From assembly GCA_020051675.1 (NCBI GenBank), contig JAGVQN010000023.1, positions 1 through 41,587 on the forward strand: a stretch of 41,587 nucleotides of DNA, in the 5' to 3' direction. Source of the stretch: Candidatus Brocadiia bacterium. Its GTDB lineage: Bacteria; Planctomycetota; MHYJ01; JACQXL01; JACQZI01. Below, in pieces: positions 1 through 24,494 of the stretch (the first letter of the stretch is position 1; every line of letters begins with the position of its first letter). Made by a program: the position numbers and the translations under genes. Below the pieces are notes generated by a model. That model made no database searches. It saw only the letters and a list, made by a program, of their open reading frames with translations, and was not told where the DNA came from.

Positions 1-3000
1 CGGATACGTGTTTATCTGGTAACTACCGTTGTGCGCCAGATAGACGTCTGTGCCCGCCGCTACCGGATTGTTCACCACCAGCTTACCGCGAATCTTGAAA
101 GGCAACGTTTCCCCTTCCGTTGCCAATGCCGCAGCTACTCCTATTTGCTTCACCCGCACCTTGACATCATCACGAATTAGATTCGGTATATTTATCCAGG
201 TATAAGTCCCCTGATTCCCCACGGTCTTAGCCGGTGTCGATGAAGTTATTTCTTTCCATTCCCCTATCCCTGAATTATCCCAATAATCCAACTGCACAGT
301 TGTTACATCGCCTGTTACCGTCCAAGTTATTGCCTCACTATTTCCTACCTTAAAGATACTATTACTGTCAGGATAATTCACCTGAATATTCCCTTTCACC
401 TTAATATCATAATCGCATTCATCATATACAGCCAGGTCGTTAACCATCCGAACCCTAACACGGAAAGTGGTGGTAATCGCATCAGGAACGGTTACATTCA
501 TTGTATAAGCACCGTTACCTGTGCCGATAACACCCGCTTCATTTCCGGCAAATGTCGTCCACGAGCCATCTCCTTTTGTCCACTGCGGATAAACTAAAAC
601 CACTCCGCCGGTTGAACCGGTTGTCGTCCAGGTAATCGCCTTGGTTTCTCCGACTTTCCAGGTCAATAAATCAGAATTAGGCGAATCCATATGATATTTA
701 CCGCGGACTTTAAATAAACCGCCCTGTGATGTTACATCTGTAATATTTACATCTGTTTTATCCGTTACCTTAATCCGTGCGGTGCCTGTCGTGGTTATCG
801 TTGAAATATTATCGTCTACGGTCCATCCGTTAAATTGCCATGTCGTTAATCCGCCAACAGCCTGATTATCATACGTCCTGTCCGGCGTCCCATCATCATT
901 ATAATCTATCTCAATCTTTACAGTGGTAACCGAGGTGGATTTTGTGCCGGTAATTACAGCCGTTGGCGAAGTGTCCCCTACGGCAAAGGTCTGACCTCCT
1001 GTCGGATACCCTAATGTTACACTTCCCTTTATAATAAAAGCGGTATTATTAGTATCGGAGATACCCTGCCAGCCATCCTGATTGGCAATCTGAATAAAAC
1101 ATTGTGATGACACGCGGTCCGGAACAGTCCAGACATAAGAATTATTTGTTCCGCTGATATTGGAAACATCTGTAGTAAAGCCTACTCCTGAATTATCCAT
1201 CTTATACCAGGTAACACCGTTATCCGTGCTAAAGGCAAGTTTAACCTTGTTAAAAGGCCCTGTTCCGCCCCATGCTTTCCAGGTAATCGTGGTTGTTACC
1301 GGAGTGCTCGGAGGAGGAAGATATTGCACTGCCGTCCCGCCTGTTGGAACCTGCACCTCCAGTTTTCCCCTAATCTGAAACACCCCTGAATCCGCATTAA
1401 CCAATGTCTCATCAACATCATTAGCCACCCTGACCACCACATTCTGCGCAATATTATCCGGTATTTTCCACGGGATAGATACGTTTTTGGCATTGGCAGA
1501 CCCGACATCAAAATTACTGGTAATTGTATTAGTAGTGACAAAATTATCTGTCGTATAAAAGACCTTGATTTTGGTAAGATTAGCGCCGGTTACCGTGCAG
1601 TTAATAAAAATATCATCATCAACCGTATACGGACTGCTGCCCGTAAGCGCTACATTACCAATCTCCCCCCTGATTTTAAAGGAAGCGTCGGAAAGGTCAA
1701 CTGTATCTCTTAACGGATCAGGAGGCAACGCGTCAGCTGCATTCACGATGCGCACCTTAATATTAGGAGCCGCGCCTGATAATTTCGCGTCAAGCGGAAT
1801 AGGCCAGGAATATGTCTGCGCACCATCCGTCCTGACATTGTTCACCAGAATATCATTGATATCGGAACCGAACTCGTCCGTGGAATACTTGATAGTGACG
1901 TTAAAATCGCCGACCTGTTCCCACTGGATATTTTCCGAAGTCCCTATCTTCCAAACCTCGGATGACAGATTCGGCCTGGTGACTATTACCTTTCCGCGTA
2001 TCTTGAAACTATTCGCGGAAAAACCGTTGATATTTATATCCGCCGTATTGGTCGCGGAAATGCGGACATTGGCGGAAACCGCGTCATTAGGCACGGGCCA
2101 ATAATATACATATGTCCCGGAAGAACCGCAGGGAGTAGTCACGATGGAATTCCACGGACCAGCCAAACCGTTAACGGAATAATATAATGTAACCTGCGAC
2201 ATTGGCCCGTTAACCGTCCAGGTAATCGGGAATTTCTCGGTTTGTTGCGCCGCATCCCATACCGTGAATACTTCATTTCCCGTATCAGGAGAAACCATGG
2301 TGATACCGCCTTTAATCTTAAACGGATTGGCTGAAATTGAATAGACATCATTCTTGAAATCCAGGCTGGCGTCTTCAACACGAATCTTTACCCGGTCGTT
2401 CGGGTCAGGAGTCAAATCCGAAGGAATCTGCCAGCTGACGCCGGTATTCGGATCAGATACGGTCGAATAGTTATTCCCATAAGGATTACCGGCAAACGCA
2501 ACCGTGGTTTCATATGTCCCGTTCTTATCCGTATCCTTTAGATAATAGAGGTTTACCGAGGTGATTACGCCCGTGGTCGTCCAGGTAATCGGCGTATTAT
2601 TACTAATCAGGTATTCTTCCCCGGAGAATTGTCCCGGATGGGTATTTGCCAGGTCTAACCTGCCGCGAATAATAAAGTTTGGAGGAGCCTCGGTTTCCGT
2701 TGATACCTCCGGGTCGTTAAAATCAGTAACCTTGATACGCGCCGTTAAAGTGGGAGTAATCAGGCGCGATATTGTCCAATCAATCCCGTCCACATCGCCG
2801 CTGACCGCTTTATTCGGGTTAATAGTAAAGGTCGCCGTAACTCCGCCATATGTGCCGATACACTCTATCTTTACATTAGTAATATTACCGGCCCTAGTCC
2901 AGGTAATCGGGCCGCTGGCATTGACATATCTGGGCTCGTTCACGGTGGGGTTATTTGCCACCAGTTTACCGCACAGCTTAAAATACTTGGAGGCATCGAT

Positions 3001-6000
3001 AATAGTTTCAGAATACGGCTGGGTTCCGCCTTCATCCGCCCTCAATGTCCTTAAACGCATCTTGACATCATAATTAGCGCCTAAAGTAGAGGTGGACGGA
3101 ATATTCCAGGCATACTGCGTGCCGGTAATAGGCTTGGCTATAAGTGTTTCCCCACCTGTAAAATCACTCCTGTCCCATTCAAAGACCAACGGATTGGTAT
3201 CACCTGTCGGTCCGGTATTGGTCCAGTCAAGAATCTTCTGGGTTCCCACCACCCACTTCAAGCTACTCCATATAGCCGTGCCGGTATCAATCGTTAATTT
3301 ACACCTAACGACAAATCCGCCTGAAACATTGACCACGGTCGGTTCGCCTGTTTCAAATATCTTAATCTTCCCTCCGGGCGCAATATCCGCTGCCGCAGGA
3401 GTCCATGGTTCTATTCCGTCATTACCGGTTCCGGTTGCGACATTGTATTCATCACCGTTAAAAAGGCCTGATTTTGAATATTGAATCGTGACAGCCCCGA
3501 CGCCGCCGGTTGAAGACCATTCAATATCATAAGAAGTTCCGACATACCATTTGGTTGTAGCGCTTGGAGTCAAGACCGAAATCGTTTTAGCCGCCAGGCT
3601 GGTTATGCTGAAATAATAATCAGAATCGTCCGTCACCCCGGTATCGCCATCTTTAGTCACCCTGATTTTACAATAATTCGAAGGAGAGTTCGGGACATAC
3701 CATGAAAGAGCCGTGCCGATTGGCTGAGCTGTGCTGATTGCATTCCAGGTCGGGATAGCTTCATTGGCATTAATCGTATATGAAATAACAACGTTTGCCC
3801 CGCCAATATTACCAATCGCCGTCCAGGTAATATTGTGCGTAGTCCCAACTGTCCAGGGCGGCGGGTCACTGCCTAATCCGTCTCCGTTAGGCTCTGATAC
3901 GACGATTTTAGCGTCCGCGCATCTTACCTGATCCAGCTGGCAGGTATCCAACCCGCTGGAAAAAAGGAACGCCTTGAAATAAAAAGTCCCTGAACCGAAT
4001 TGCGTATAAAACTGGCTGATATTCGTGTCAACTTCATTCTTTGTATTAGTCTCGGCTGGGTAACCGGCGCCTGTCTGCAATGTCCATTGTGTCCCGTTAT
4101 GATAATACCAGTTGGTGCTACTGGCGGCAATCTGGTATTCCACGCCGCTATTGGTAGTGGTAATAACCGTATCGGAAAATCCGGCCAATCCGCTATATGG
4201 GCCCCATCCGGTGATATTAGCCACGGTCGGCGCGTCATAAGGATAATAATTGCCTGTAACCGTAACCGTCTCCATGGCCGGTGAATATCTCGGTGCACCT
4301 GTATTAAAAATAGCCTTATATTGGAAATACTTACCTGCCTCAGTCGTGTAATCGGCGAAACCGGATACGGCATAATTACATTTAGTAATCGTCTCGGTCA
4401 GAGCGGTACTATCATCATAATAAGTATTCTTAGTTCCATCCGGTCCGACAAAATCCGCACCTATTCCAATTACATCAGGCTTGTCAAAATTACCGTTATT
4501 ATCTGAAGACCGCACCTGGAATCTCAGCCCGAGTTGTCCGTGTTTATAATGCGCTTTTACTTCCGTCTCTGAGATGGCAATGTTATGGAGTGCCGCCTCA
4601 TCAATCTGTCCCTTAAATCCCCAGAGATATTCCTCATCTGAACCAACCCAGAGGTCGTTAGAGGTGTTATAGTTTACATCGCCGGCGGTGCCAATCGGAC
4701 TTCCCGCCACCCCATCTACGTAAACAATACACTGACTGCCATTATAAACCCCGACAACATGATGCCATTTGTCATCTGTCACCGAAGCCGGACCCCAGGC
4801 CGGTGGGTCAGGAATCGATACCCCGTCCGTGGAAACCCAAAAATATGGCCGATAATCCTGGGTCGTTGAATTATAAGCAATACCCAGATTAAATTCTAAC
4901 GCGGGATTAACACCTCGGGCAACAATGGTCTGTTGCACCAGCGACCCTGTTTTAACCCAAGCCTCTACGGTTAACTTATCCGTCCAGACCGTATCTGGCT
5001 TATCAGGCACGACGGCATAATCATCCACCCCGTCAAATTTACCGGCATAACCGCCGAATTTATAGTTGCCCGGACTACTATCAAAACCAGCCCCGTTTTG
5101 AGGTTGAAGCGTCATGCCGGACCCCGAAGAATCGTTCCAATTATTATTCATATACCAGAGACCCACGAGCCCGGTTGCCTGTTTCAACTCATCGCCGTAA
5201 AACTCATCTTCACCCCAGGCGAGTGTTTCCCATTTAACCGTCGGGGTGCCCGCCACCGAAATAACCGGCGAGATATAATCACCCTGACTGCGATAGCCAA
5301 TCGGTGTATTCTTATAAATAGCGACATCGTCCAGCCGTCCCTTAAAGCTCTTGCCTATAATCACCGGTTCGGTAGATGGTTTGACAACAAATGACCTCAG
5401 AGTTGAATTCTCTTTGTTACCATTAACCGCTATCTCCATCGTGTTACCGTCAAATCCAGCCACAATATGATACCATGTTCCGGCCGTCCAAGTAACCGTC
5501 TGTGAGGAGATACTATAATAAGGGGTCGTTCCGTAGCGGAAGATATCGCAGTCGTCCAATACCAGCCCTGCTTCATCCGCCTCGTAACCGCAACCGATAT
5601 AAAGTCCGTCCGCATCGCTCGTCATTGCCCAGGCCATCGCATAGTTATCGTTAAATGCCTTGCCTAAAGAGCCCAGACTGGCAGTGCTGCCATCATAGAC
5701 CTTGGTCCAGGACGAACCATCAAAAGACCAAAGATTGGCATATGCGTAACTGCCGGTTCGGGGACGACCGGAAGAGGAATAGAGTTTGTTATTAAAGACC
5801 TCTAAATCATAGACATAGTAATCGCCGGCCGTGGTCAGGTTTTTAGAGATAGTCCAGTTTGTCCCGTTAGAACTCGCCCAGATATCGGCCTGCCCTGTTC
5901 CGGCACCGCCCGTGCCGGCATAAAGTTTAGTGCCATAGGCACAGAGTGAATAGGCATAATAATAAATCGGGGCAGCACCCGTGAAATCTGTGCCTACGGC

Positions 6001-8700
6001 TGTTCCACCTGCCGCGAGTGACCACCCCACCCCGGCTTCATAACAAAATATATCGGCATCACCAAGACTCGCGCCGGTTCCACAATATAATTTGTCATTA
6101 AATACGGCCATTGAATTGACATATTCATAAATAGCCGCACCGGTGTTGCCAATATCGTTGGCGGTGAGTCTGGTTCCCCGAACATAGGACCAGTTACCGA
6201 GAACCGTATAGTCACCGTTTAATTCCACCACATCCGCATCACCGGCGGTCGCCCCGAGCCCGATATATAGTCTCCCGTCATAGACACACATAGACTGGAT
6301 ATACTCATAAACAGCGCCATCCGCATCGTTTTTGACCCCATCCGCAAAATCACCGATGTCATTGGTGGTCGTTGCTGTCCCCATTGCGTAATCCCAATTA
6401 GTCCCGTCATAAACCAGGACATCCGCATCGCCGGCCGTTAGCCCCATCCCGACATATAACTTATCATTATAGACGGCCATACATCTGACATATTCATAAA
6501 CAGACCTGACCGTTGGTTTGGCGGGTGCCCCGGCCGTCGTGCCGCCGGTCTTGGAGTAAAAAGCCGTATCCTCTTTCCAGGAAACGCCGTCATAGACAAA
6601 GATGGCGGCATCACCGGCCCCGATACCCGTCCCGGCATAGACCTTATCCTTATAAACCGCCATCGCGGTAACGGACTCCCAGCCGTTGGTAGCTCCACCC
6701 GGAGTGAGGTCGTCAAATGCCTTATCATAGGACCAGGAAGGAGCCGGTGGCGAGTTGTTATAAAGGATGAAATCTAATTTACCGTTTGCCGCATTAAACC
6801 GCAGTTCATAACCCTTCTTTTTCTGGACCACAGACATATGGGCGGGCGCGCCCGCCTGAAAGGTATCAGTAAACCTGACCCAGGACTCTATCCCTAACGA
6901 ATATTTCAGGAGTGTATCTGTGGTATGGGTTACATTGATATAATCATCTACGCCGTCTAAGGCTACGGCGCCTGAGAACTGACCGCCGCCCGGAATAATC
7001 GTCGCACCATTCTTCAGATTGCCCCAATCTGCCTTTGTGCCGGCCGAGGGCGTGCCTGAAGCCGCATCAGTAACCGTAATCCCACCGGTGGCGCTATCCA
7101 ATGGCCATAAGGCAACGATATTATCTGCGGATACATTACGAGCTTCACTGGCATTATAAGTCGGCAGTAGCCGGACAAAATCCGTATTCCAAATAGTCTG
7201 ATTAAACACACCTGTTGCCTCGAATTCTGATTGAGCATCATCCTTATTATCCGCCGCCGAACCATTGACCGTTACATCATATAATTTGGGAGAGAAGGCA
7301 TTAGAGCCGGTTTGCAGGTAGACCCGATACTGAAGGTATCTATTCGCATCCGGTATCTCGCCTCCAAAGGTAACGGTGCCCGGCAGGGCAACCGAGGTGT
7401 AATATGAATTAGATGTCCCATCCGACCCGACAAAAGGTATGGCTCCTTCATCCGGCGGTGTGGAAGTAGCAAATGAGCGTGCCTGGAACCTGAGATCTGT
7501 CCCGTATTGATAATGAGCGCTCATCTCCTCGCTACTGAGCACCCGTCCATATATCGCGACTTCATCCATCTGTCCCTGAAAATTAGTGGTCAGAGTCGTG
7601 CTGACCGGTAGAGCCATATAAAGGAGATAGGCATTGGTCATATTCCAACTATTATCAGAACTTCCCTGTGTCGTCCTGTCGCCGGCCTGTCCATCCACAT
7701 AAATCGCCACATCTGAAGTATCCCTGAAGGCAATGATATGGTGCCATTTGCCGTCATTAACAGCCTGGTTAGAGACCGCATCGGTATAAACGGTTTCCAA
7801 GCCATCCGGACCGGTCCAGGGGGCAATCAGGCGGAAATATGCCTTACCAAATCCATTTATACCCAATTCCCAGCCATAATAATCGGTCGCGTCATCACGG
7901 CCTTTTTGAATAATCGTTCTGTCAATAATCCCGACGGCTGGTTTTAGCCAGCATTCTACGGTAAAATTGCCTGTGCCGAAATCAAGGTCGTTACTATCAT
8001 TTACTGAAACATAATCAGCCGCGGCGCCCGGGAAATTGCCGCCATTATTAAACTTCTGGGCGGTATTATTACTGGCCGCACCGGAAGGAGTTCCGGTATC
8101 AGTAGAGGCATCAACCGTAGAGTTATCAACCCAATCACCATTCATATGCCAGATTGCCTTGAGGTCTGATGTAGTATTGGCAATTTCAGCCCGGCCATCG
8201 TTCCAGGTAAGTCCGGTCCAGTTTGGTGTGCCGGTGCCATCAAAGACGCGTGAGGTAAAAGTCCCGGTCGTGGTCGTAAAACCGCCGTTAGGCAAACGAA
8301 CTAAACGAAGATAATCAGGGTCGGCATAAGCGAGGGTATTACTAAAGGCGTAACCGGTCTGGGTAAAACCACGAGGGGCAGAATTATCGTATTTATCGTG
8401 TGTGGTCGTGGCGGTTTGCTGCTTGAGCCGTGCCACGCCGCCGACAAATTCTATCTTAGCCGAATCAAAGGTGTAATCTTCCGGAGGAACGGTTCCCGGC
8501 GCGGCCAGGTCCCAGGTTTGGGAAGCCGCGTAGATAAGAAGAACCGAAACAACGATAATCGTAACAGAAAGAAGAAGCGGACGCAGGATACGGCCCAGGC
8601 GGCCGCGCGGTGTAGAGTGTGGAGCGTTAAGAGTAGAGTGCTCACACCACTTCGTATCTTCCGTTGTTCCGTCTACTTGCTTGTCTTTATTATCGTTCAT
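1..8700 (-). CDS. Giant surface/adhesin-like protein, 3'-partial (at least 2900 aa): N-terminal hydrophobic segment, 3 LamG domains, 7-blade beta-propeller, at least 12 Ig-like repeats
   Basis: Manual translation from ATG at 8700 (GGAG upstream): MNDNKDKQ...RILRPLLLSVTIIVVSVLLIYAA... The same frame reads ...FKIRGKLVVNNPVAAGTDVYLAHNGSYQINTYP at position 1. No ORF-track fragment is in this frame, consistent with no stop. LamG motifs: DFGTGNFTVECWLK, FDGVDDY, WHHVVGVY, FKGQIDE. Confidence 0.9.
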   Translation of the reverse strand, partial: MNDNKDKQVDGTTEDTKWCEHSTLNAPHSTPRGRLGRILRPLLLSVTIIVVSVLLIYAASQTWDLAAPGTVPPEDYTFDSAKIEFVGGVARLKQQTATTTHDKYDNSAPRGFTQTGYAFSNTLAYADPDYLRLVRLPNGGFTTTTGTFTSRVFDGTGTPNWTGLTWNDGRAEIANTTSDLKAIWHMNGDWVDNSTVDASTDTGTPSGAASNNTAQKFNNGGNFPGAAADYVSVNDSNDLDFGTGNFTVECWLKPAVGIIDRTIIQKGRDDATDYYGWELGINGFGKAYFRLIAPWTGPDGLETVYTDAVSNQAVNDGKWHHIIAFRDTSDVAIYVDGQAGDRTTQGSSDNSWNMTNAYLLYMALPVSTTLTTNFQGQMDEVAIYGRVLSSEEMSAHYQYGTDLRFQARSFATSTPPDEGAIPFVGSDGTSNSYYTSVALPGTVTFGGEIPDANRYLQYRVYLQTGSNAFSPKLYDVTVNGSAADNKDDAQSEFEATGVFNQTIWNTDFVRLLPTYNASEARNVSADNIVALWPLDSATGGITVTDAASGTPSAGTKADWGNLKNGATIIPGGGQFSGAVALDGVDDYINVTHTTDTLLKYSLGIESWVRFTDTFQAGAPAHMSVVQKKKGYELRFNAANGKLDFILYNNSPPAPSWSYDKAFDDLTPGGATNGWESVTAMAVYKDKVYAGTGIGAGDAAIFVYDGVSWKEDTAFYSKTGGTTAGAPAKPTVRSVYEYVRCMAVYNDKLYVGMGLTAGDADVLVYDGTNWDYAMGTATTTNDIGDFADGVKNDADGAVYEYIQSMCVYDGRLYIGLGATAGDADVVELNGDYTVLGNWSYVRGTRLTANDIGNTGAAIYEYVNSMAVFNDKLYCGTGASLGDADIFCYEAGVGWSLAAGGTAVGTDFTGAAPIYYYAYSLCAYGTKLYAGTGGAGTGQADIWASSNGTNWTISKNLTTAGDYYVYDLEVFNNKLYSSSGRPRTGSYAYANLWSFDGSSWTKVYDGSTASLGSLGKAFNDNYAMAWAMTSDADGLYIGCGYEADEAGLVLDDCDIFRYGTTPYYSISSQTVTWTAGTWYHIVAGFDGNTMEIAVNGNKENSTLRSFVVKPSTEPVIIGKSFKGRLDDVAIYKNTPIGYRSQGDYISPVISVAGTPTVKWETLAWGEDEFYGDELKQATGLVGLWYMNNNWNDSSGSGMTLQPQNGAGFDSSPGNYKFGGYAGKFDGVDDYAVVPDKPDTVWTDKLTVEAWVKTGSLVQQTIVARGVNPALEFNLGIAYNSTTQDYRPYFWVSTDGVSIPDPPAWGPASVTDDKWHHVVGVYNGSQCIVYVDGVAGSPIGTAGDVNYNTSNDLWVGSDEEYLWGFKGQIDEAALHNIAISETEVKAHYKHGQLGLRFQVRSSDNNGNFDKPDVIGIGADFVGPDGTKNTYYDDSTALTETITKCNYAVSGFADYTTEAGKYFQYKAIFNTGAPRYSPAMETVTVTGNYYPYDAPTVANITGWGPYSGLAGFSDTVITTTNSGVEYQIAASSTNWYYHNGTQWTLQTGAGYPAETNTKNEVDTNISQFYTQFGSGTFYFKAFLFSSGLDTCQLDQVRCADAKIVVSEPNGDGLGSDPPPWTVGTTHNITWTAIGNIGGANVVISYTINANEAIPTWNAISTAQPIGTALSWYVPNSPSNYCKIRVTKDGDTGVTDDSDYYFSITSLAAKTISVLTPSATTKWYVGTSYDIEWSSTGGVGAVTIQYSKSGLFNGDEYNVATGTGNDGIEPWTPAAADIAPGGKIKIFETGEPTVVNVSGGFVVRCKLTIDTGTAIWSSLKWVVGTQKILDWTNTGPTGDTNPLVFEWDRSDFTGGETLIAKPITGTQYAWNIPSTSTLGANYDVKMRLRTLRADEGGTQPYSETIIDASKYFKLCGKLVANNPTVNEPRYVNASGPITWTRAGNITNVKIECIGTYGGVTATFTINPNKAVSGDVDGIDWTISRLITPTLTARIKVTDFNDPEVSTETEAPPNFIIRGRLDLANTHPGQFSGEEYLISNNTPITWTTTGVITSVNLYYLKDTDKNGTYETTVAFAGNPYGNNYSTVSDPNTGVSWQIPSDLTPDPNDRVKIRVEDASLDFKNDVYSISANPFKIKGGITMVSPDTGNEVFTVWDAAQQTEKFPITWTVNGPMSQVTLYYSVNGLAGPWNSIVTTPCGSSGTYVYYWPVPNDAVSANVRISATNTADININGFSANSFKIRGKVIVTRPNLSSEVWKIGTSENIQWEQVGDFNVTIKYSTDEFGSDINDILVNNVRTDGAQTYSWPIPLDAKLSGAAPNIKVRIVNAADALPPDPLRDTVDLSDASFKIRGEIGNVALTGSSPYTVDDDIFINCTVTGANLTKIKVFYTTDNFVTTNTITSNFDVGSANAKNVSIPWKIPDNIAQNVVVRVANDVDETLVNADSGVFQIRGKLEVQVPTGGTAVQYLPPPSTPVTTTITWKAWGGTGPFNKVKLAFSTDNGVTWYKMDNSGVGFTTDVSNISGTNNSYVWTVPDRVSSQCFIQIANQDGWQGISDTNNTAFIIKGSVTLGYPTGGQTFAVGDTSPTAVITGTKSTSVTTVKIEIDYNDDGTPDRTYDNQAVGGLTTWQFNGWTVDDNISTITTTGTARIKVTDKTDVNITDVTSQGGLFKVRGKYHMDSPNSDLLTWKVGETKAITWTTTGSTGGVVLVYPQWTKGDGSWTTFAGNEAGVIGTGNGAYTMNVTVPDAITTTFRVRVRMVNDLAVYDECDYDIKVKGNIQVNYPDSNSIFKVGNSEAITWTVTGDVTTVQLDYWDNSGIGEWKEITSSTPAKTVGNQGTYTWINIPNLIRDDVKVRVKQIGVAAALATEGETLPFKIRGKLVVNNPVAAGTDVYLAHNGSYQINTYP

Positions 8701-8730: not shown

Positions 8731-8946
8731 TTACCCCGCGATAGCCAATACCTTTCTAAAATCCTTATCCAGATGCTCCAACATCTTCTGAATCGCATCA
8801 ACCTCTTCCTCCTTGAAATACCTCGCCCCGCAGGAGGGGCAACCGAATGCCGGGACGCCTTCCAGCGCCAGCTGGTATCCATGCCGGTTAATGGTATACC
8901 GGGATTTAATCTCCGCTATTTCATGGCCGCAATTTGAACATTTCAT
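8731..8946 (-). CDS. YgiT-type (MqsA-like) zinc-finger protein
   Basis: MKCSNC...LEGVPAFGCPSCGARYF: two CxxC pairs and the VPA-x-x-C motif; strong SD (AGGAGGTG) upstream. Confidence 0.85.
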   Translation of the reverse strand: MKCSNCGHEIAEIKSRYTINRHGYQLALEGVPAFGCPSCGARYFKEEEVDAIQKMLEHLDKDFRKVLAIAG

Positions 8947-9031: not shown

Positions 9032-9048
9032 AGCAAATACCGTGCCAA
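9032..9048 (-). promoter_or_regulatory. Sigma54 (-24/-12) promoter for the zinc-finger and giant-protein genes
   Basis: Minus strand reads TTGGCACGGTATTTGCT, matching the TGGCAC-N5-TTGCW consensus, about 85 bp upstream of the 8946 start. Confidence 0.8.
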
Positions 9049-9202: not shown

Positions 9203-9217
9203 TCTGTGGCTGGTTTT

Positions 9218-11493: not shown

Positions 11494-11709
11494 TACGGGC
11501 GGTTGGCACCACCACCCCCGCATATAAATTAAATTATGTGCGGGTTATTTTTCTTGCAGTAGAGGAAAGTATAAACACGAATGATACGAATAAAACCCGC
11601 ACCTCATGGTGGTGCGTGGATAAACATTTAAATACCGTATGAATAATCAGGGATAGGGGATTCGGAGCAGAAGAATAAAAATTTACATAGAAATTAAATA
11701 TTTCACTTG

Positions 11710-11792: not shown

Positions 11793-11820
11793 TGACAGAA
11801 CCTCTTTTTTAGGGTAAATT
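11792..11820 (+). promoter_or_regulatory. Sigma70-type promoter for pilin cluster 1
   Basis: TTGACA-N17-TAAATT. A second candidate, TTGACC-N17-TATACT with an extended TG, lies at 11707-11735. Confidence 0.6.
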
Positions 11821-16252: not shown

Positions 16253-17772
16253 GAAACAAAATTCATTTGTCAGTTGTTAGTTGTCAGTTGTTAGTTGTCA
16301 GCTGTTTGTTGTTAACAGGATTGTTAGCATTTGCATATATCGTCCCGTTGTCCGCGGATACCGTGACCTTAAAAAACGGCTCAACACTGGAAGGCATCGT
16401 CGTTTCGGAAGACGAAGAATCCATCATCCTTGATGCGGATGATATGAAAATGACCATTAAAAAGAAGGATATCGAATCCATTACCAAATCCGAATATATA
16501 CCGCCTTCGGAAAGCTATAAACCGCCCGAGGTAAAACCAAAAAACCCACTCCCCGCTGAGATTAATCCCGTAAAGCCTATTACACCCTCAGACTCAACAA
16601 AACCTGATTTCTCTTCAGATTCCGGCGCAAACAACATATCCGGAATCGCCTTAAGCGATGAGGGCAAGACTCCTGAACAAATAGAGATAAACAATCTCTT
16701 GAGGAAACTCGTCGATAAGAACGAAAAAGAACCATGGAAAATATCGCCTGAATTAACCGAAAAAGGAAAAAGCGATACCGCCTACCTAATATCACTGATG
16801 GCCTTACCTTCAAACGACGCCAATATTAGACGCTGGATTATTTACTCCCTGGGGCAGATAATGCAAAGCAGCAGTCCCGCCTTGGCGGAAACCGCAGCAG
16901 CGTCGGGAGAAAAACCCACAGACAATGAACAAATCATCAATGCGCTCAAATTGGTATTATCCGACCCGGATGAAATAATCCGCTCTGCGGCAGTGGAAGC
17001 GCTCGGTCATTTTAAGGCACCTGAAAAAACAGCGTATTTAAAACCTGCCTCGCCGGCAGGCAGGGAGGAAAAAGATGTTTTAGGACAGCTTAAAAACCTG
17101 ATGAAATCAATTATGGAAACGGATACTTCTGTTTCCGTCCGTTTCCAGGCGATTAACAACCTCGCCGCCTGGTATGATTTTTCCGCGATTCCGCCTTTAA
17201 TTAAAGCGCTCGGCAATGAGGACGGCACAATCCGTTCGGCCGCTTCAGACGCGCTGGTAAAATTCATCAACCTGCCAGAAGAAGAGCAAGCAAAATACAC
17301 AAACCCGCCTGCCGCCGAGGCAAGAATCACTTATGATATCATCCCGATGCTCCTGCCAAAGCTAAGGGAGGATAAATTGCTCATCCGCAAGGAAATACTG
17401 GCTATTCTGGGTAAGGTAAAGGATAAACGCGCCTTTGACACTTTAAAGCAATTGATTGCCGACCGAGACCCGGAAATCAGGATGCTCGCCGTGGTTGCTT
17501 TGGGAAGCATGGTGGATAAAGAGACCGTTGATGTATTGCTTGATATGATGGAAAACGACCCTGATAAAACAACCAGGATACAAATACTGCAGGTATTGCA
17601 AACCCTTAAGATGCAAGAAACAATACCGCGCATTATAGAACTCCTCAAAGACCCTGATAAAGAAATCCGCTATTCCGCCTCGCGGGCATTGCGGCAAATC
17701 ACCGGCAAGGCGCTGGGCGCCACCTATGAATTATGGAAAGACTGGTGGGATAAGCTTCAGGGGATTAAGTAA
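16249..17772 (+). CDS. Exported HEAT-repeat protein
   Basis: Signal peptide ending PLSA|DTVTLKNG, Pro-rich linker, several 'L.DPD.EIR..A..ALG' HEAT repeats; ATG overlaps the upstream stop. Confidence 0.85.
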   Translation: MRNKIHLSVVSCQLLVVSCLLLTGLLAFAYIVPLSADTVTLKNGSTLEGIVVSEDEESIILDADDMKMTIKKKDIESITKSEYIPPSESYKPPEVKPKNPLPAEINPVKPITPSDSTKPDFSSDSGANNISGIALSDEGKTPEQIEINNLLRKLVDKNEKEPWKISPELTEKGKSDTAYLISLMALPSNDANIRRWIIYSLGQIMQSSSPALAETAAASGEKPTDNEQIINALKLVLSDPDEIIRSAAVEALGHFKAPEKTAYLKPASPAGREEKDVLGQLKNLMKSIMETDTSVSVRFQAINNLAAWYDFSAIPPLIKALGNEDGTIRSAASDALVKFINLPEEEQAKYTNPPAAEARITYDIIPMLLPKLREDKLLIRKEILAILGKVKDKRAFDTLKQLIADRDPEIRMLAVVALGSMVDKETVDVLLDMMENDPDKTTRIQILQVLQTLKMQETIPRIIELLKDPDKEIRYSASRALRQITGKALGATYELWKDWWDKLQGIK

Positions 17773-17947
17773 AGATTAACACTCCGCTTGTGAATCCTGA
17801 CAAATCGTGTTATGGGTTTAGCTCAATTATTCGGAGGTGATTTAATACCTGTATGAACGGTTCACACTGGTAGTTGAACGGTTGAACGCATGCGTGGAAA
17901 GGGTCACCGCATGCGGGGTTAATTATTCATAATGGGATCCCGAATCC

Positions 17948-17966
17948 CGTCCCGCAAAGCGGGACG
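17948..17966. terminator. GC-rich hairpin between convergent operons (terminator or REP-like)
   Basis: CGTCCCGC-AAA-GCGGGACG perfect 8-bp stem inside a larger CCCGA...TCGGG frame; no clear U-tract. Confidence 0.45.
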
Positions 17967-18035
17967 TGGTCGGGGGGACAGAAAGAAAAGTTATTATGGG
18001 TTATGTTCCGCGAAAGGACGATGATTTATTTAATC

Positions 18036-19040
18036 TCAGAACTCGTGCATGACGGCGATGGTCGTGCTTTCCCAGCCCAATAAAGTCATTTTTGAAGCCA
18101 TGAAATAAGCTATTACCAAACGGACCATCACCTGACGCGCGCCGGTCGGCCCGATAATCTGCACCTCAAACCCATGCGGAAACCCGGTCCCCGTCTGGTC
18201 AGCTATGGCGAATTTGGGAACGGTAACGGGAACCGTAAAAGTGGCAGTCTTATTCCAGGAAATACTGCTTGAACCGAATCCTAAAAGTCCGATTACGCTA
18301 TCGCTCCTCTCTTTTTGCATTACGTATAACGCGTTAGGGTCATCGTCAATATTATCATCATCGTCGTCGTCAATATCGTCGGTATCATATTCATAAAAAG
18401 CCGTATCTGGCGTATTGCGCGGAAGCCAGTAATAAGTGATGCCGCGTTCGTTATACAAAGCATTGGCTATTGTCTGGCGCGAAATCACCGCGGACATCGC
18501 CGTTATCTGCTCGTAATCTGCGAATTCCTTGCTCTGCCACCTTACCAGGCGCAGGCTGGAGGACCTGCCGCCAAAAGAGTTATTGTTGGGCGAAAGGTAA
18601 TAATACACCATCCGGTAAATATTCACCCTGCGTAGCGTACTGCCTATGGTCGTGCTGAAAGGGGTCATTTCCTGTATGAATAATAACGCGTTGCCGGTCC
18701 GGGTGACCGTGGTATCCAACCGGAAAGTGCCGGTTGAATCCACCTTAGGTAAAAGAGTCCCGGTAAGCACCGGATAGGCCGCTTCAATCTGCAACCTGCC
18801 CTGGTAAGCCACCCCAATCGAATTATTTTCATAAATCATGCGCGACTGGGTCACGTCCAGGTTAATCCGGTCTATCGCCTTCTGTCCCCATTCGGTCATG
18901 AATGAAGTGCCCTGCATAAGCTCGCTTGATGAGTTGATAGAAGAAATCAATTCAAAAGAAGCGATCATAACCATGGAAAACAAAGTAAGCACTATCATTA
19001 CTTCCAGCAACGTGAAGCCGCTTATTTTATTATGCTTCAT
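18036..19040 (-). CDS. Prepilin-type protein (PilW-like), cluster 2
   Basis: MKHNKISG|FTLLEVMIVLTLF class III signal; internal Asp-rich tract. Confidence 0.85.
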   Translation of the reverse strand: MKHNKISGFTLLEVMIVLTLFSMVMIASFELISSINSSSELMQGTSFMTEWGQKAIDRINLDVTQSRMIYENNSIGVAYQGRLQIEAAYPVLTGTLLPKVDSTGTFRLDTTVTRTGNALLFIQEMTPFSTTIGSTLRRVNIYRMVYYYLSPNNNSFGGRSSSLRLVRWQSKEFADYEQITAMSAVISRQTIANALYNERGITYYWLPRNTPDTAFYEYDTDDIDDDDDDNIDDDPNALYVMQKERSDSVIGLLGFGSSSISWNKTATFTVPVTVPKFAIADQTGTGFPHGFEVQIIGPTGARQVMVRLVIAYFMASKMTLLGWESTTIAVMHEF

Positions 19041-19056
19041 ACTTAGTTGATACGTT

Positions 19057-22000
19057 TCAACGGTTAATAAATATCCTCTGCCGGTGGTAAGAATAATGCC
19101 TCATCTGATTAAGGCGATACGCCTCCAGCCTGAGAATATAACTGCCCTCAGGGAAAATATCTAAATCGGAAACATCCCAGTCATAGCCTTCATTTGCGCC
19201 GGCATTTACATCCGTAATCCATAAACCCTGATTAGGGATGCCCAAGGTTGCCGCGGAATTATCCGCGACATGTTTCCAGGTATCACCGTTATCATCTGAA
19301 TAAAGCAGGACATACCGCAAATCAGCCTCTGTCTCGGCAAAACCATCCGCGTAAGCCGAGGTATATTTCTGCCCGTCCCATCTTTTCCATTCTATTGACC
19401 AGGTGATGGAAATCGCGGACGGGTCATTAAGCTCGGTGGCAACATTCGGCGTTTCCAGTTCTACCCGTGGAAGCTGGACAATCCGGCTGGGTGTGCCGGT
19501 CAATCCGCAGGTCAGGAAACTGTGCACTAAACTGACAACCGCGTAACGCCCGATAAATGCCGAACCGCTTTCCACGGTTTTATCCAGTCCGTTCACCACG
19601 ATAAACGCGTTTGAAGCCGCCGGATTGGCAAGCATGATAAGCGAGCTTCCCTGCCAGGTCCCGCCATCCTGATGCCCGTAAAGCTGTGTATTTACCGTTG
19701 CGGTGCAACGAAGATTTGAATATTCGGTAATGCTGAATTCCGTGGGGGCCGCTCCCCAGTCATTATCCAACCTGAACGGGCGGCTGATAGGAGCGCTTGA
19801 AGGCATGGGGAAATTATAACCATTAGCCATAATCGTCCCGTCTGCGGTTATCGTGCCGGTCGTGCCGTCACGGCCAGTATGGCGGAAAGTGGAAGTGGTC
19901 GTCCCGATATTAAAGAATGAGGTGCAGCCATAAGCCTGTGTCCGGCGGACGCAAGCCAGCCCGGAAAAGGTCGTTCCCCGGTTAAGCCATTTGGCGCTTG
20001 CCGCCGTAATATCCTGCCGGCGGATGCGGACAAAGGTGTTTGCCCCGCTGCCGCTGGTTAAGTTCCCGTTTGCCGTCCACTGGGCGGAGTAAACTCCGTC
20101 CGGATAATTCTCGCCCAGCCAGGGCATTCCCCACCAATACGGAGTAGTGCTTTCCCTGATATATTTAACGCCGCCGGTCTGGTCCGTGGTAATTGATTGC
20201 TCGTTACGCGTGCCGGTCCCCCCGTCAAACGGCTTGCGCGAGGTCGGGATACTGTTGGTAAATCCGTTGGCAGAGTCATACCCGATTTCATTGCCTATAC
20301 CCATATAATAATAAGACCATCCAGTAATGCTGGTATAAACACAATTCGCTCCGGTCAGCGCCGTCCTGATAAACTGGAAATACCTGGGCACATCTATTTC
20401 CATCCGGTCTCCGCCGACGACGCCGCCACCGTGCCAGCCGTCGTCGCTATCGGCGCTTCCATTCACCAGGGTAGAGCTGATACCGGGCCATTCGCTGATA
20501 GTATTAACGGTCGCATCCCGCAGGTTATCAAAATACCAGTTATAACCGTTATACGCGCGGACATCGGAATAAGGGCAATGGCGCGGGTCGCCCTGGAATT
20601 GGTAGCGCTCGCTAAAGGGAACATTGGCAATACTATTCGTCCGCCAGATATAGGTGGAAGAAAGGTTCGGCGGTTTGTTCTTGGCGGGCCAGACCGTGCC
20701 GGCAGTCAGGTCGTCATTTATCCGCGTCTGGATTTCGATTGTCCCGGTCGCGGGATTCCCTAATTCACGGACTAAAGCGGCGTTAGTTACCGTAACAATC
20801 CAGCGTGCGGTATTTTTAGGAACGGTTGAACAACGCAGGAACGGAAGGCTGCTGTTACCCTGTAATCCATATATATAACCGCTTGAAGCGGAATAAACCA
20901 AAGCGCCTCCCGCGCCAACATTATAAGGGTTAGTAGCGGTCATCACAGTCCATGAATTTCCGGAGATGGAATAACGCCAGAATGCGGTGTTTCCGGCGCC
21001 CTGGAAGGCATAGATAAAATCGCCTGACCCCGGATAAACCAACGCGCCGCCGCTGATAGCGCCTGTGCCGACATTACCCGGAGCATTAGTCATTGCCACC
21101 CAGGCATTTCCGAAAATGGAATAGCGCCAAAAGGCATTGGTCGCAGCTCCGCGGAAAGCATAAATAAAATCACCGCCGGTGGAAACTAGGGCCCCGCCTG
21201 AACCGACAGTAGCCGGGGCAACCGCCATAGCGGTCCATGTATTTCCTGAAATAGAATAGCGCCAGAAAGTATTTGTCGTGGCTCCGCGGAAGGCATAGAT
21301 AAAACCGGCGGTAGAAGTGCATGCCAGCGCACCGCCATCACCAACCGTAGCAGGAGCATCCGCACATGCTGTCCAGGAATCTTCAGTATAATACTTAAAG
21401 GTTGCCTGAGTGTTTCCCCTAAGGGCATAAATACGGCCGTTTGAAGAGACATAAACCAAGGCGCCGCCTGCTCCAACATTCGCGCCGTAATTCGCCTTTC
21501 CGACCCAGGAGTTGCCGGATATAGAATACCGCGATAAAACCTGGCTATTTCCTCCCCTCAAAGCATAAATAAAATCTCCTCCTGTGGAAGCCAAAGCGCC
21601 GCCTGCGGCAATAGTGCTCGGCGAATTCGCCATTACATCCCATAAATTGGTCGTATTAGTAAGATTCTGACTAAAATTATTTGCCGCTTCAACCGGGCAG
21701 GGAATATAATCCATCCCGTATAACCGGCGGTTAGTATCCAACCCGCCATTCTCTCCAGAGTACGGCGTCCTTAAAGGCGTAAAATAAAGCTTGACGACAG
21801 TCTGATCATTACCCGCATCATAACTGGTCGTCGCATACATCTTATTCATGGAAGAGCCTGTCCCGGTGGTCGTCGGCGCCGGAGAAATCACCGTATAAGC
21901 ATCGGCAATATTATTAACCGGGTTCTGGTCGGTTCCGCCTTCAATGCAGGAAATCGACATATCAGTTGCCGTGGTCAGGTTCATATTGGGAATCACCAGG

Positions 22001-23292
22001 CTGATACAGGTTGCCGTGGTCATAAAATTATTACCGCCTATGGAAGGGTCCTTGAGATACGCATAAACACGGAGTTTCAAATCGTCCGTAAGATTATAGC
22101 GTATTTGCTGCGGGTGAGTCACCGCGCGCCACTGCGGGTAAGCCGCCGGGTCTTTTGCCGCATCGGAATAATTGCGGATAGAAGGCATCGGAATCAACTC
22201 GCCGTGCAGATTGATAAAAAGAGAATTACGGTAATTGGTCGGATTAAGAATCATATCATCCAAAAGAAGGCGGTAAGTCAGGTCGCCTTCTGCTTCCTGC
22301 CCTGCCGCCAGGCGGTTGTTATATAAAGCCAGTTCATCCGGGTAACGCATGGCATGATTATACTGGTCTGCCAGGGCATAAGGATAAGGATTGCTTGTTG
22401 CATTGTAATCGTTGGTCGTGGTGCCGTCGATATTCACCCGCGCCTTGACATTGCCCGGAACATAATACTGGTTGACCGCCGAGCCTGAAGGCATGCTTCC
22501 CGGGTAAAAATAGGCGTAGTTAATATCAGCGTTTGAATCAACCGCATCGTTGAAAAACGGCTTGTATTCCTGGTCGCGCCCGTAAGCGGCTTTGGTCACC
22601 CAATGGCGGCGGAATTCCATTCCCGGATTGCGCGACTCCATATCGCTCAGGGCATTCTCAATAAACGGGGTCAGGTACGCCAGATACACCCACCAGCCGG
22701 GAATATTTTCCACGCCAAGCATATAAACATCGTATACCTGGGTAGTCGGGTCGGTATCGCCGCTGGTTGAAACGACCGAGGTTATATCCGCCATAATCGT
22801 GGCATCGTTCTGACCCGTTTCCGTCTTAAATATTTTCACCGTGACAATCCGGACATTGGAGGCTTCAAACGAGGCAAACTTCCTGACCGTAATGCGCCTG
22901 GCGTAATACCACCGGCCGGAAGTCCAGGTATTACCGCTTAAGATATGGTCCGGATTAGAAACAGTTGAATCAATTGTAAGAATAGGATTTGTCCCGACGC
23001 CGTCATCAAATATATCCAGGGTTGAAGCGCCGCCGGCAGATTCATTCGCTTCGGCATAGCCGCGCAACTCGCTTATGATTGAGATGGCTTTCTGGATGGC
23101 AAAAGAACGGTCCTGGGTCGCGCTTATGGATACATTCATCGTTCCGAAAAAACTGACTGAAGCGGTAATGGCAATCGCCAAAACCATTATGGCAATCATC
23201 AGCTCAATAATGGTAAAACCGTTTAACCTGTTGAAGATTATCTTTTTATCTGCGGATAATGCTGTCGTATCGCTTACCTCATTTAACCTCAT
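19057..23292 (-). CDS. Giant 1411-aa prepilin-type protein: PilV-like N-terminus, large accessory region, 6-blade Kelch-like propeller
   Basis: NG|FTIIELMIAIMVLAIAI; six 'GGAL...IYAFRG...FWRYSISGNxW' repeats at about 21645-20820; C-terminal Ig-like domain (ITW...YSDDNGDTW). Confidence 0.88.
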   Translation of the reverse strand: MRLNEVSDTTALSADKKIIFNRLNGFTIIELMIAIMVLAIAITASVSFFGTMNVSISATQDRSFAIQKAISIISELRGYAEANESAGGASTLDIFDDGVGTNPILTIDSTVSNPDHILSGNTWTSGRWYYARRITVRKFASFEASNVRIVTVKIFKTETGQNDATIMADITSVVSTSGDTDPTTQVYDVYMLGVENIPGWWVYLAYLTPFIENALSDMESRNPGMEFRRHWVTKAAYGRDQEYKPFFNDAVDSNADINYAYFYPGSMPSGSAVNQYYVPGNVKARVNIDGTTTNDYNATSNPYPYALADQYNHAMRYPDELALYNNRLAAGQEAEGDLTYRLLLDDMILNPTNYRNSLFINLHGELIPMPSIRNYSDAAKDPAAYPQWRAVTHPQQIRYNLTDDLKLRVYAYLKDPSIGGNNFMTTATCISLVIPNMNLTTATDMSISCIEGGTDQNPVNNIADAYTVISPAPTTTGTGSSMNKMYATTSYDAGNDQTVVKLYFTPLRTPYSGENGGLDTNRRLYGMDYIPCPVEAANNFSQNLTNTTNLWDVMANSPSTIAAGGALASTGGDFIYALRGGNSQVLSRYSISGNSWVGKANYGANVGAGGALVYVSSNGRIYALRGNTQATFKYYTEDSWTACADAPATVGDGGALACTSTAGFIYAFRGATTNTFWRYSISGNTWTAMAVAPATVGSGGALVSTGGDFIYAFRGAATNAFWRYSIFGNAWVAMTNAPGNVGTGAISGGALVYPGSGDFIYAFQGAGNTAFWRYSISGNSWTVMTATNPYNVGAGGALVYSASSGYIYGLQGNSSLPFLRCSTVPKNTARWIVTVTNAALVRELGNPATGTIEIQTRINDDLTAGTVWPAKNKPPNLSSTYIWRTNSIANVPFSERYQFQGDPRHCPYSDVRAYNGYNWYFDNLRDATVNTISEWPGISSTLVNGSADSDDGWHGGGVVGGDRMEIDVPRYFQFIRTALTGANCVYTSITGWSYYYMGIGNEIGYDSANGFTNSIPTSRKPFDGGTGTRNEQSITTDQTGGVKYIRESTTPYWWGMPWLGENYPDGVYSAQWTANGNLTSGSGANTFVRIRRQDITAASAKWLNRGTTFSGLACVRRTQAYGCTSFFNIGTTTSTFRHTGRDGTTGTITADGTIMANGYNFPMPSSAPISRPFRLDNDWGAAPTEFSITEYSNLRCTATVNTQLYGHQDGGTWQGSSLIMLANPAASNAFIVVNGLDKTVESGSAFIGRYAVVSLVHSFLTCGLTGTPSRIVQLPRVELETPNVATELNDPSAISITWSIEWKRWDGQKYTSAYADGFAETEADLRYVLLYSDDNGDTWKHVADNSAATLGIPNQGLWITDVNAGANEGYDWDVSDLDIFPEGSYILRLEAYRLNQMRHYSYHRQRIFINR

Positions 23293-24421
23293 AAATTCCT
23301 TTAGCCAGACGATACTGTCCGGTATATATGGCTATCTGCGAAATGACATTTGCGTCATAATCTATTTCGGAAATATCGCCGGTTGATTCGATATTCACCT
23401 GGTCAAGAGCGACCACCGAACCGTTGATAATGGAAGGCGCATGCTGGTGGTAATGACCCTTGCAATAAATGATGCCGTTATATGCTGACCCGCTGTTGGC
23501 GGCAATGGTCATATTACCGGTAATATAAAAAATGCCAGTGCCTTTCAAAGGATGGTCGGAATTAAAAGTGGCATTTCCTTCAAAAAAGACTATTTTGTAA
23601 TCGGGAATCGGGTCGGGCAAATCATCCACCGAATCAACAGAATAATCGGCAATGGACTTAAGTTCGGCCTCGGTCATTCCAAAAACATTAATGGTTGAAG
23701 TATTATAAGGAGTAAGCGCTGAGGTTGCACCAAGCGTTCCGGTTACCGTAGCATTAGGATTAATATTGGGCGTTCCGGAACCGGAAGGATAAATTATGCC
23801 GAACTTATTTCCCCCCTCAATCTTAACATTATTTCCGATAACTGTCTGTCCCGGATCACCCGCGCAAAGCGCCGCCTGGCCGGGTAAAACCATGCTCACC
23901 CGCCGGATTTCAGTCGCCAGCTTTATAGAACCCACCATATAGTTGGGCCAGGTATTATACGCCAATGAAGGATTCTTTTTTGCATATATTATACCCTGCG
24001 ATTCAATATACCATAATGTCCCGTTACTTAAACCGCGCTGTGTTGAAATATCGGAAACGATTGTCTTGGAAACGACATACATTCCGTAAAGATCACGGTT
24101 TTGGGCAACTTCAATCTCTCTTACTAAACCGGCATCAGAATCATCCGTTTCATTAATAACCGGCGTATGGTCCATATCCCGTTGCGGGGCAAATGTCGTC
24201 ACTGGCTGGCCGGTCTGCCGGCGAAACCAGGAAAGCGTATCTAATATGCCTGCCTTGGCAATCGACGTGGTCTGACCGTAATATTCCAAATGCGAATCAA
24301 GGATAAGCATGCTATTCATAAGCATGTTCATGCCGGCAGTAATAGCGGCGACTAAGACCATCATGGTAAGCATCGTCCAGATTAATATAGAGCCTTTTTG
24401 CGCTTGCTTATTTTTATTCAT
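23279..24421 (-). CDS. PilX-like minor pilin, cluster 2
   Basis: AQKG|SILIWTMLTMMVLV, AKAG motif, C-terminal 'GIFYITGN...GIIYCKG...INGSVVA' beta-solenoid-like repeats. Confidence 0.75.
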   Translation of the reverse strand: MNKNKQAQKGSILIWTMLTMMVLVAAITAGMNMLMNSMLILDSHLEYYGQTTSIAKAGILDTLSWFRRQTGQPVTTFAPQRDMDHTPVINETDDSDAGLVREIEVAQNRDLYGMYVVSKTIVSDISTQRGLSNGTLWYIESQGIIYAKKNPSLAYNTWPNYMVGSIKLATEIRRVSMVLPGQAALCAGDPGQTVIGNNVKIEGGNKFGIIYPSGSGTPNINPNATVTGTLGATSALTPYNTSTINVFGMTEAELKSIADYSVDSVDDLPDPIPDYKIVFFEGNATFNSDHPLKGTGIFYITGNMTIAANSGSAYNGIIYCKGHYHQHAPSIINGSVVALDQVNIESTGDISEIDYDANVISQIAIYTGQYRLAKGIYEVK

Positions 24422-24465
24422 ATATTTATTGCTGTTATTACTACTATCATTCTCTCTCCACCTAT

Positions 24466-24494
24466 AGTTTACCCCATAAATATCGTTTTGTCAA
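24466..24494 (-). promoter_or_regulatory. Sigma70-type promoter for pilin cluster 2
   Basis: Minus strand TTGACA-N17-TAAACT. Confidence 0.6.

Follow-up and report, generated by a model that had tools for sequence, protein, structure and literature searches.

Giant I-type pilin triad and a second minor-pilin module beside a putative sigma54-type LamG operon in a Candidatus Brocadiia contig

Minor-pilin tip complexes decide the start of a type IV filament and its binding target. To our knowledge, what has been learnt of them comes almost entirely from Proteobacteria, Firmicutes and Myxococcus, in which the large protein at the tip is PilY1 or else a pilin of only modestly increased size. TcpB is, like CofB, a large pilin-like tip subunit. 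The subject here is a stretch of 41,587 nucleotides from a Candidatus Brocadiia bacterium of the Planctomycetota (contig JAGVQN010000023.1 of assembly GCA_020051675.1; the whole stretch is called the window), which carries two convergent clusters of minor-pilin genes, modules A and B, and a giant gene for a protein with LamG domains. The lasting item of interest is the triad of module B, in which an uncharacterised I-type pilin of 1,411 amino acids (aa) stands between two smaller partners. The available text of PMC12918778 describes a universal I-J-K core trimer, with an apical K subunit that lacks the glutamate at position 5 (Glu5), as the initiator of type IV filaments, and a large tip protein that may be a protein of its own (PilC/PilY1) or belong to a pilin-like subunit, of which CpaL is an example. 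Modular pilins, onto which further modules are grafted, are widespread according to the accessible part of PMC8179133, and many of those modules are without database signatures.

The window is contig C21 of the genome here numbered G000, a metagenome-assembled genome (MAG) of 1.2 Mb in 116 contigs that is 57% complete. Its open reading frames (ORFs) were listed and scanned for protein families with Pfam and NCBIfam models. Module B is on the minus strand and comprises, in the direction of reading, the putative K/X-type cap protein X380 (380 aa, 23279-24421), the giant I-type modular pilin (1,411 aa, 19057-23292) and the J/W-type minor pilin W334 (334 aa, 18036-19040). It is a conserved three-gene unit that stands alone in Planctomycetota and in an Elusimicrobia MAG. 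The order X, giant pilin, W is kept at five further loci (L009, L010, L038, which is that of the Elusimicrobia MAG, L065 and L080); at a sixth, L079, which is GC-rich DNA, the giant gene alone is cleanly readable. Most triad loci are flanked by unrelated housekeeping genes. The Elusimicrobia orthologues of X and W are 28% (E 6e-67) and 27% (E 4e-34) identical to those of the window, and the best tblastn segment of the giant pilin to the same phylum's MAG is 36% identical. There are 50 homologues of X380, all titled at most ‘hypothetical protein’ and all lacking a Pfam domain in their precomputed annotation, and six relatives, when scanned, gave no Pfam match; W334 has 35 homologues. No sequencing run is listed for the module B stretch.

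In the giant pilin a pilin module (about residues 22-185) precedes a conserved head; six Kelch-like repeats are inserted at about 548-826, and an FN3-like domain makes up the C-terminal end. A word-index search with it gave 616 matches at E<=0.001, a count that overstates the family because some of these match the Kelch-like repeats only. One of them, P0068 (a multihaem cytochrome of 2,311 aa), was considered as a cytochrome-fused member of the family and was set aside when BLASTP showed only the Kelch-like repeats to be in common. The top matches listed are mostly of 1,090-1,620 aa with no Pfam annotation but N_methyl. Judged by record title they belong to Planctomycetota, to Acidobacteria (one title, ‘Acidobacteria bacterium Mor1’, being that of an isolate) and to Thermoanaerobaculia; a scan of genome contigs adds the Elusimicrobia MAG and one Luminiphilus MAG. 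Across an alignment of 45 sequences that reaches other phyla, identity to the window's giant pilin is 45-69% and more than 100 positions are invariant. Its conserved C-terminal part (586 aa, insert excluded) was detected in 35 of 301 Planctomycetota genomes that had been sampled evenly (27 of the 190 of high quality), usually in single copy and concentrated in a few families. Conserved I-type pilins of 1,100-1,400 residues with fixed X and W partners are present in Planctomycetota and, going by record titles, in Acidobacteriota and Elusimicrobia as well. The family has no curated model and no solved relative, and the literature searched held no description of it; Dataset S1 of PMC8179133 may list members.

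Relatives without the insert align to residues 24-547 and 823-1411 of the window protein and skip about 548-826, so that this segment is a lineage-specific insert. It consists in translation of six repeats of about 46 aa and is matched by Pfam Kelch_6 at 31.9 bits. Many copies of the same 46-aa repeat (20818-21651 in the window) are found in further ORFs of very large size in relatives, such as a frame of 4,213 aa in G002:C13, and it looks like a mobile repeat module.

Structure was predicted for a relative, P0011, which has 1,152 aa, is 67% identical to the window protein and is without the insert. Its AlphaFold2 model, made from an alignment of 60 sequences, has a mean predicted local distance difference test score (pLDDT) of 86.4 and a predicted template modelling score (pTM) of 0.85. 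In a structural search against representatives, residues 63-183 match XcpV, the GspI homologue of the type II secretion system (T2SS), as seen in the XcpV-XcpW complex (5bw0_B; Z 8.1, root-mean-square deviation 2.7 Å, 87/89 residues), and residues 1014-1152 match FN3-like modules with Z about 9. The middle, 190-1010, was refolded alone with pLDDT 88.5 and pTM 0.92, and its matches are no more than middling. Its discontinuous alpha/beta core resembles ThuA/GATase1-like domains, best of all the non-catalytic domain of a GH42 enzyme (Z 8.6, 197 residues), with ThuA-like proteins reaching Z 6.6-7.5 across some 200 residues. At about 196-430 of the middle model is a beta-sandwich that resembles immunoglobulin (Ig)-like domains of Gram-positive pilins and adhesins, and cohesins, at Z 6.2-7.7. 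The giant pilin in sequence and the P0011 models in fold matched no catalytic domain and no enzyme family. Foldseek with the whole P0011 model and with the head returned only Ig-like or chance rows, and sequence and profile searches of the PDB returned nothing for the giant pilin, for X380 or for the cap protein X442 of module A. The protein Atlas offers pilin-plus-propeller clusters only, at 0.84, which we treat as a lead only. The giant pilin fits the definition of a modular pilin in the accessible part of PMC8179133, by its N_methyl match together with the Kelch-like insert, and the Ig-like sandwich and FN3-like domain predicted in the relative's model would add to this.

Pilin signals were sought with Pfam N_methyl (PF07963, cut-off 21.2 bits), the motif being Gly, then (F/M)xxxE, then a hydrophobic alpha-1 helix. 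Four of the seven pilin-type genes of the two modules are above the cut-off: those for the 134-aa (23.1 bits) and 266-aa (28.4 bits) proteins of module A, and for W334 (31.2 bits) and the giant pilin (23.0 bits) of module B. These four proteins carry the class III signal of type IV pilins and pseudopilins. Each of the three X proteins has, as read from the translations, Gly and then a hydrophobic helix with no Glu at +5 (the Gly being followed by SALFT, AALFI or SILIW), and on this ground they are probably of PilX/GspK type and are not canonical class III prepilins. The first-pass annotation of this DNA had counted seven class III prepilin-type genes, which holds in substance, four being canonical and three of the Glu5-less cap type. 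Two narrower assignments were considered and dropped. The Verru_Chthon cassette model (TIGR02599) gives the 266-aa protein 24.1 bits, over its N-terminal 60 residues only, with a cut-off of 256.5, and the hormogonium polysaccharide pseudopilin HpsC (NF038304) gives W334 24.2 bits with a cut-off of 200.

Module A, on the plus strand, begins with an I/V-type minor pilin (134 aa, 11843-12247) and a J/W-type minor pilin (266 aa, 12244-13044). These are followed by the putative K/X-type cap protein X442 (442 aa, 13041-14369), which is without Glu5 and has a beta-helix-like C-terminal part, and by a second K/X-type protein (443 aa, 14921-16252), its paralogue (41% identity, E 1e-107). The last gene (16216-17772) encodes a HEAT-repeat protein of 518 aa from the listed GTG (HEAT_2 135.3 bits) with an N-terminal hydrophobic, signal-like stretch, and the earlier description of it as exported is borne out as far as such a stretch can predict. 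This V, W, X, X, HEAT set is a conserved five-gene unit: the order is found in G000, G001, G012, G004, G006 and G011, in differing contexts, and the HEAT gene is the last one in all six genomes examined (by position only for the ORF in G001). Between the two X paralogues of the window lies a GxxExxY / PD-(D/E)XK gene that is no member of the module (14454-14825, plus strand; PDDEXK_3 132.5 bits, TIGR04256 141 bits). G001 is without it, and G012 has at its position an unrelated ORF of 122 aa with no Pfam match.

An exhaustive HMMER search with X442 gave relatives in 766 representative clusters at E<=1e-3. When 36 of these relatives were scanned against Pfam, PilX_N was above its cut-off in 8 and DUF7305 in 1, with many more just under the DUF7305 cut-off; 2 have T2SSK matches that reach 30.1 and 20.4 bits over the protein as a whole (cut-off 24.2), and in neither does a single stretch pass. 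X380 is a remote homologue of the same family, its profile aligning over 302 columns (hhalign 98.3%, E 1.5e-14), and by these alignments the three X proteins are one superfamily. The alpha-1 helix of the 134-aa pilin aligns to the giant-pilin profile over 61 columns (hhalign 88.9%, E 2.4e-6), and the 266-aa W aligns with the W334 family over its N-terminal 93 columns only (hhalign 97.1%, E 7e-11).

The clusters converge with a gap of 263 bp between them, and as two convergent sets of minor-pilin genes they are real and located as the first-pass annotation had them. It had also called them independently promoted. Sigma70-like sites, as consensus matches only, lie before cluster A (11707-11735 and 11792-11820, plus strand) and before cluster B (24494-24466, minus strand), and would agree with a separate promoter for each.

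Machine genes are elsewhere. The window ORFs that were scanned gave no match to T2SSE, to T2SSF, to a secretin or to PilY1, in agreement with the earlier remark that PilB, PilC, PilQ and PilY1 are missing from the window. Over the genome as a whole, core genes of type IV pilus and T2SS kind were found outside the window: there are 11 T2SSE matches, 5 of them of full-length PilB/GspE size, 3 T2SSF (platform) genes, 4 secretins and one prepilin peptidase (Peptidase_A24, on C48). N_methyl has 8 matches genome-wide, of which 4 are those in the window. Two near-identical cassettes, on C1 (L066) and C19 (L067), each combine a PilB-type ATPase (MshEN + T2SSE) with a platform protein of PilC type and a PilS-like histidine kinase, and a third platform-kinase pair is on C111. 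PilY1 (PF05567) was not found in a six-frame search of the genome, which is that of the 57% complete MAG and in which the controls were silent. Among the 301 sampled Planctomycetota genomes Pfam PilY1 was found in 1, a number too small for assessing an anticorrelation between PilY1 and the giant pilin.

These features make it moderately probable that modules A and B are alternative tip-initiation sets that serve filament machines with genes elsewhere, and that the giant pilin displays its head at the tip. Each module would provide a complete core, made of one I/V-type and one J/W-type subunit with Glu5 plus a K/X type without it. Each set would then prime and cap a type IV filament of its own kind, a pilus or a T2SS-like pseudopilus, presumably built by the PilB-PilC machines, secretins and prepilin peptidase whose genes lie elsewhere in the genome. 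The head of the I-type subunit of module B has about 1,200 residues and is predicted to consist of a ThuA/GATase1-like alpha/beta core in elaborated form, an Ig-like beta-sandwich as known from Gram-positive pilins and adhesins, and an FN3-like domain; in this lineage a surface loop of the head would also hold a Kelch-like propeller of six blades. In a filament that incorporates the subunit, the head would sit at the tip, replace a separate PilY1-type protein and perhaps bind a ligand there. Since the corresponding module of the relative is predicted to fold like XcpV, the subunit would work in a GspI-like way without being an equivalog of GspI.

The first-pass annotation had proposed alternative tip complexes in which the adhesin is built into the pilins. 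Both clusters do look like minor-pilin tip sets, and the cluster B pilin, whose N-terminal module is XcpV-like in a relative, does have a very large extra module. The adhesin part of the proposal is one possibility, as the head is far more conserved than usual adhesins are.

Several points weigh against tip-initiation sets with a head at the tip. That unusual conservation is one of them, many of the invariant residues being Trp, Arg, Asp and His, and also Pro and Gly. The three window X proteins match no Pfam or NCBIfam pilin model, PilX_N and T2SSK being silent at E<=0.01. The equivalog models of NCBIfam for PilV, GspI and GspJ are all under their cut-offs for the window proteins: the 134-aa protein scores 28.3 bits on PilV (TIGR02523, cut-off 52.2) and 19.4 bits on gspI (TIGR01707, cut-off 44.35), the giant pilin scores 17.2 bits on the gspI model, and W334 scores 19.7 bits on GspJ (TIGR01711, cut-off 64.85). 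The fold match to XcpV is a middling one and belongs to P0011 and not to the window protein, and the head is without a convincing solved match, its best covering 197 of 821 residues. Missing from both modules are an H-type minor pilin, a major pilin and any gene of the machines, and machine genes are within the inspected flanks of only one of six loci (L080, in G100:C4, where PilT-/PilB-like ATPase genes at 17552-19998 are 4.7 kb downstream of the triad, beyond gatA, gatB and hisF). For the PilY1 search, none of the 14 named genomes served as a positive control. Mutual binding of the three proteins and their entry into a filament are what we infer. A complex prediction for X380, W334 and the giant pilin's first 190 residues, with each chain given its own alignment, scored 0.63, 0.63 and 0.61, and 0.00 and 0.00 when a partner was replaced, yet still 0.47 when X380 was exchanged for an unrelated protein; this outcome is counted neither for nor against binding.

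Of the described tip complexes, that of the T2SS (GspI-GspJ-GspK, or XcpV-XcpW-XcpX) is like the present modules in its I, J and K gene types, in the Glu5-less K and in the XcpV fold on which the I-type module superposes. It differs in that the I-type subunit of module B has about 950-1,200 extra residues and that the K types of the window have a beta-helix-like part of DUF7305 type in place of the alpha-domain of GspK and no T2SSK match. The window, moreover, has no GspH and no adjacent gsp operon, and its proteins fall short on the equivalog models. A rival explanation gives the modules a T2SS-like role and not one in adhesion: they would be the tips of pseudopili that secrete or take up polymers, and the head would handle a substrate, or plug or gate the secretin. 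The logic of the trimer and the fold match do point to T2SS proteins, as do the T2SSK scores in 2 of the 36 X-family relatives, and the genome has its 4 secretins and several ATPases. The core of the head resembles the non-catalytic ThuA-like domain of carbohydrate-active enzymes (GH42, PelA and Agd3, Z 6.5-8.6), and the strict conservation of the head would suit a fixed partner or substrate. We nevertheless consider this role unlikely, given that the head has matched no catalytic domain or enzyme family and that the ATPases adjacent to platform genes have MshEN domains and PilS-like kinases, which is an arrangement like that of type IVa pili (T4aP); genes of GspC, GspL and GspM type were not searched for.

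Type IVa pili have their own tip complex of PilV, PilW, PilX and PilY1. As with the Myxococcus xanthus sets in the available text of PMC7541494, several minor-pilin sets are present in one genome and stand apart from machine genes, and a large mass that forms no filament is presumed to be at the tip. The differences are that no PilY1 was found in the window or the genome, that the mass is here covalently part of a pilin and that the modules are without genes of FimU/PilE type. Distance from machine genes can also be read in another way, namely that the class III-type N-termini are a device for export and membrane anchoring only and that the proteins form an envelope complex which is never polymerised. 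This is distinctly improbable, even though five of the six inspected loci have the modules away from machine genes and a head of about 950-1,200 residues may be bulky for passage through a secretin. The load is not without parallel in size, that of PilY1 at pilus tips being comparable. PilY1 is in fact carried at pilus tips in other bacteria, as the available part of PMC7541494 reports, and a complete I/J/K set with a Glu5-less cap is, in the terms of PMC12918778 as far as its text is available, a hallmark of filament initiation. The N-terminal signal, moreover, with 8 matches in all, is not broadly used in this genome.

Among pilins with large additions, the modular pilins PilB and PilC of Streptococcus sanguinis (PMC8179133) differ in scale: the extra part of the giant pilin is far larger, the extreme case named in the accessible text of that survey having 860 residues. 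They differ also in that the giant pilin's head is multi-domain, has no Pfam match outside the Kelch-like insert, is highly conserved across phyla and belongs to a fixed unit of three genes. CpaL of Tad pili (PMC12918778) and CofB and ComZ (PMC8179133) are, in the parts of these papers available, enlarged minor pilins at the tip with a part in initiation, as is proposed for the giant pilin. In CpaL, CofB, TcpB and ComZ it is the cap or initiator that is enlarged, whereas here it is the Glu5-bearing I type, with a separate Glu5-less X beside it. No sequence or fold match of the giant pilin to any of the four was seen in the PDB and structure searches. Module B departs from the described cases in these respects together: the enlarged Glu5-bearing I type, the 950-1,200 or so extra residues, the unmatched architecture of the head and its conservation across phyla.

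A bolder proposal, which we hold as tentative and think somewhat doubtful, is that the triad is a self-contained ‘headed’ tip-initiation complex present in several phyla. Its I-type pilin would have absorbed the role of PilY1 by means of a head of about 950 residues whose architecture has no solved counterpart, and a surface loop after the Ig-like domain would dock lineage-specific effector modules, here the six-blade Kelch-like propeller. In that case Planctomycetota and other phyla poor in PilY1 would construct their pilus tips on a different principle, and the strict conservation of the head would point to a shared ligand or mechanical function. The triad is, in any event, a testable candidate for filament capping in such phyla.

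The remaining unit of the window is headed by a promoter. At 9033-9047 on the minus strand is a sigma54-type -24/-12 element, TGGCACGGTATTTGC, the sole site in the window with 0 mismatches to the motif tested (TGGCAC-N5-TTGC). The first gene behind it is a zinc-ribbon ORF of 71 aa (8731-8946, minus strand) with a weak, MqsA-like N-terminal match (Pfam MqsA_antitoxin 21.6 bits, under the cut-off of 30). It is followed by the giant LamG ORF (1-8700, minus strand), which encodes at least 2,900 aa and whose 3′ end is off the contig. The protein has an N-terminal membrane anchor and three LamG stretches (Laminin_G_3, 161.7 bits). Of the earlier description of it as a LamG/propeller/Ig protein of at least 2,900 aa, the length and the LamG domains stand; no model confirmed the propeller or the Ig domains. 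Homologues have open frames of 8,909 aa (G006:C1:44389-48726) and 7,011 aa (G011:C193:10201-13701), and since the contig end truncates the window copy, its full length could be well above 2,900 aa.

G001, which is of the same genus, keeps an orthologue of the 71-aa zinc-ribbon gene in the same position and has the identical sigma54 site. Upstream regions of about 1.6 kb each were scanned for five further LamG homologues, in G004, G006, G008, G011 and G013, and each has one perfect site on the correct strand, about 60-150 nt from the first aligned codon. All seven homologues examined have a perfect site, where by our arithmetic chance would give about 0.003 per 1.6 kb; the same scan gave 68 of 78 loci without any. 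Genes for sigma54 activators are present in the window's genome. A search for rpoN gave nothing in this MAG, which is 57% complete; G001, G004 and G006 do have the gene. At the level of sequence the sigma54 control that the first-pass annotation had assigned to this gene is thus well supported, and the small zinc-ribbon gene and the giant surface protein would form a sigma54-dependent operon. Just past the ThiF gene beside module B, where the window has a PAS protein, G001 (C4, 2258-5434; locus L062) has an NtrC-type sigma54 activator (receiver + Sigma54_activat + HTH_8) together with a dCache/HAMP histidine kinase. This activator is a candidate regulator of the LamG-gene promoter.

The first-pass annotation had taken the two clusters and the LamG giant for one dedicated adhesion or contact apparatus. 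All three parts are contiguous in the window and in G001, and A and B are convergent neighbours in G012 also. Beyond that the association dissolves. The LamG giant adjoins pilin genes in only one of the eight relatives that have a homologue with an N-terminal match, namely G001; in the other seven (G004, G006, G007, G008, G011, G012 and G013) it is on another contig, and in G012 an unrelated HEAT protein of 808 aa occupies the LamG position. Nine genomes have both the giant pilin and the A-type X. The two are adjacent on one contig in three of them (G000, G001 and G012) and on different contigs in the six others (G004, G006, G008, G009, G014 and G027; non-adjacency was verified on the flanks for G004 and G006). 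Between the window and G001 the giant pilin is 88% identical, while the LamG giant is only 46% identical to its counterpart, an open ORF of 2,568 aa, which indicates different constraints. The promoters also differ, being of sigma54 type for the LamG gene and sigma70-like for the clusters. The test of co-location in relatives, which the first-pass annotation had itself set, has largely refuted a single apparatus, which is now highly improbable. The link of LamG and pilin genes is a genus-level neighbourhood and not a system, and the stretch is three separable units. This corrects the tempting idea that a giant adhesin is part of the same machine as the pilins beside it.

Nor are the clusters ‘back to back’ with the LamG gene, as had been thought, the zinc-ribbon ORF and a broken transposase of the IS66 family (DDE_Tnp_IS66; NF033517 in two pieces) intervening. 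The latter is at 9372-11058 on the plus strand, in ORFs 9372-10208 and 10333-11058, between the sigma54 operon and module A, and is missing at the same place in G001.

On the other side, beyond module B, are genes for ThiF, a PAS protein, a CODH/ACS delta subunit and a 2-oxoacid:ferredoxin oxidoreductase, the last two of these being functions of central anaerobic metabolism. Pfam gave no match at E<=0.01 for three ORFs there, namely 26631-28973 (780 aa), 31350-32447 (365 aa) and 40485-41150 (221 aa). The PAS-domain gene (25545-26252) has, 48 nt upstream, a sigma54-like site with one mismatch, TGGCGCCGGATTTGC, at 26300-26314 on the minus strand.

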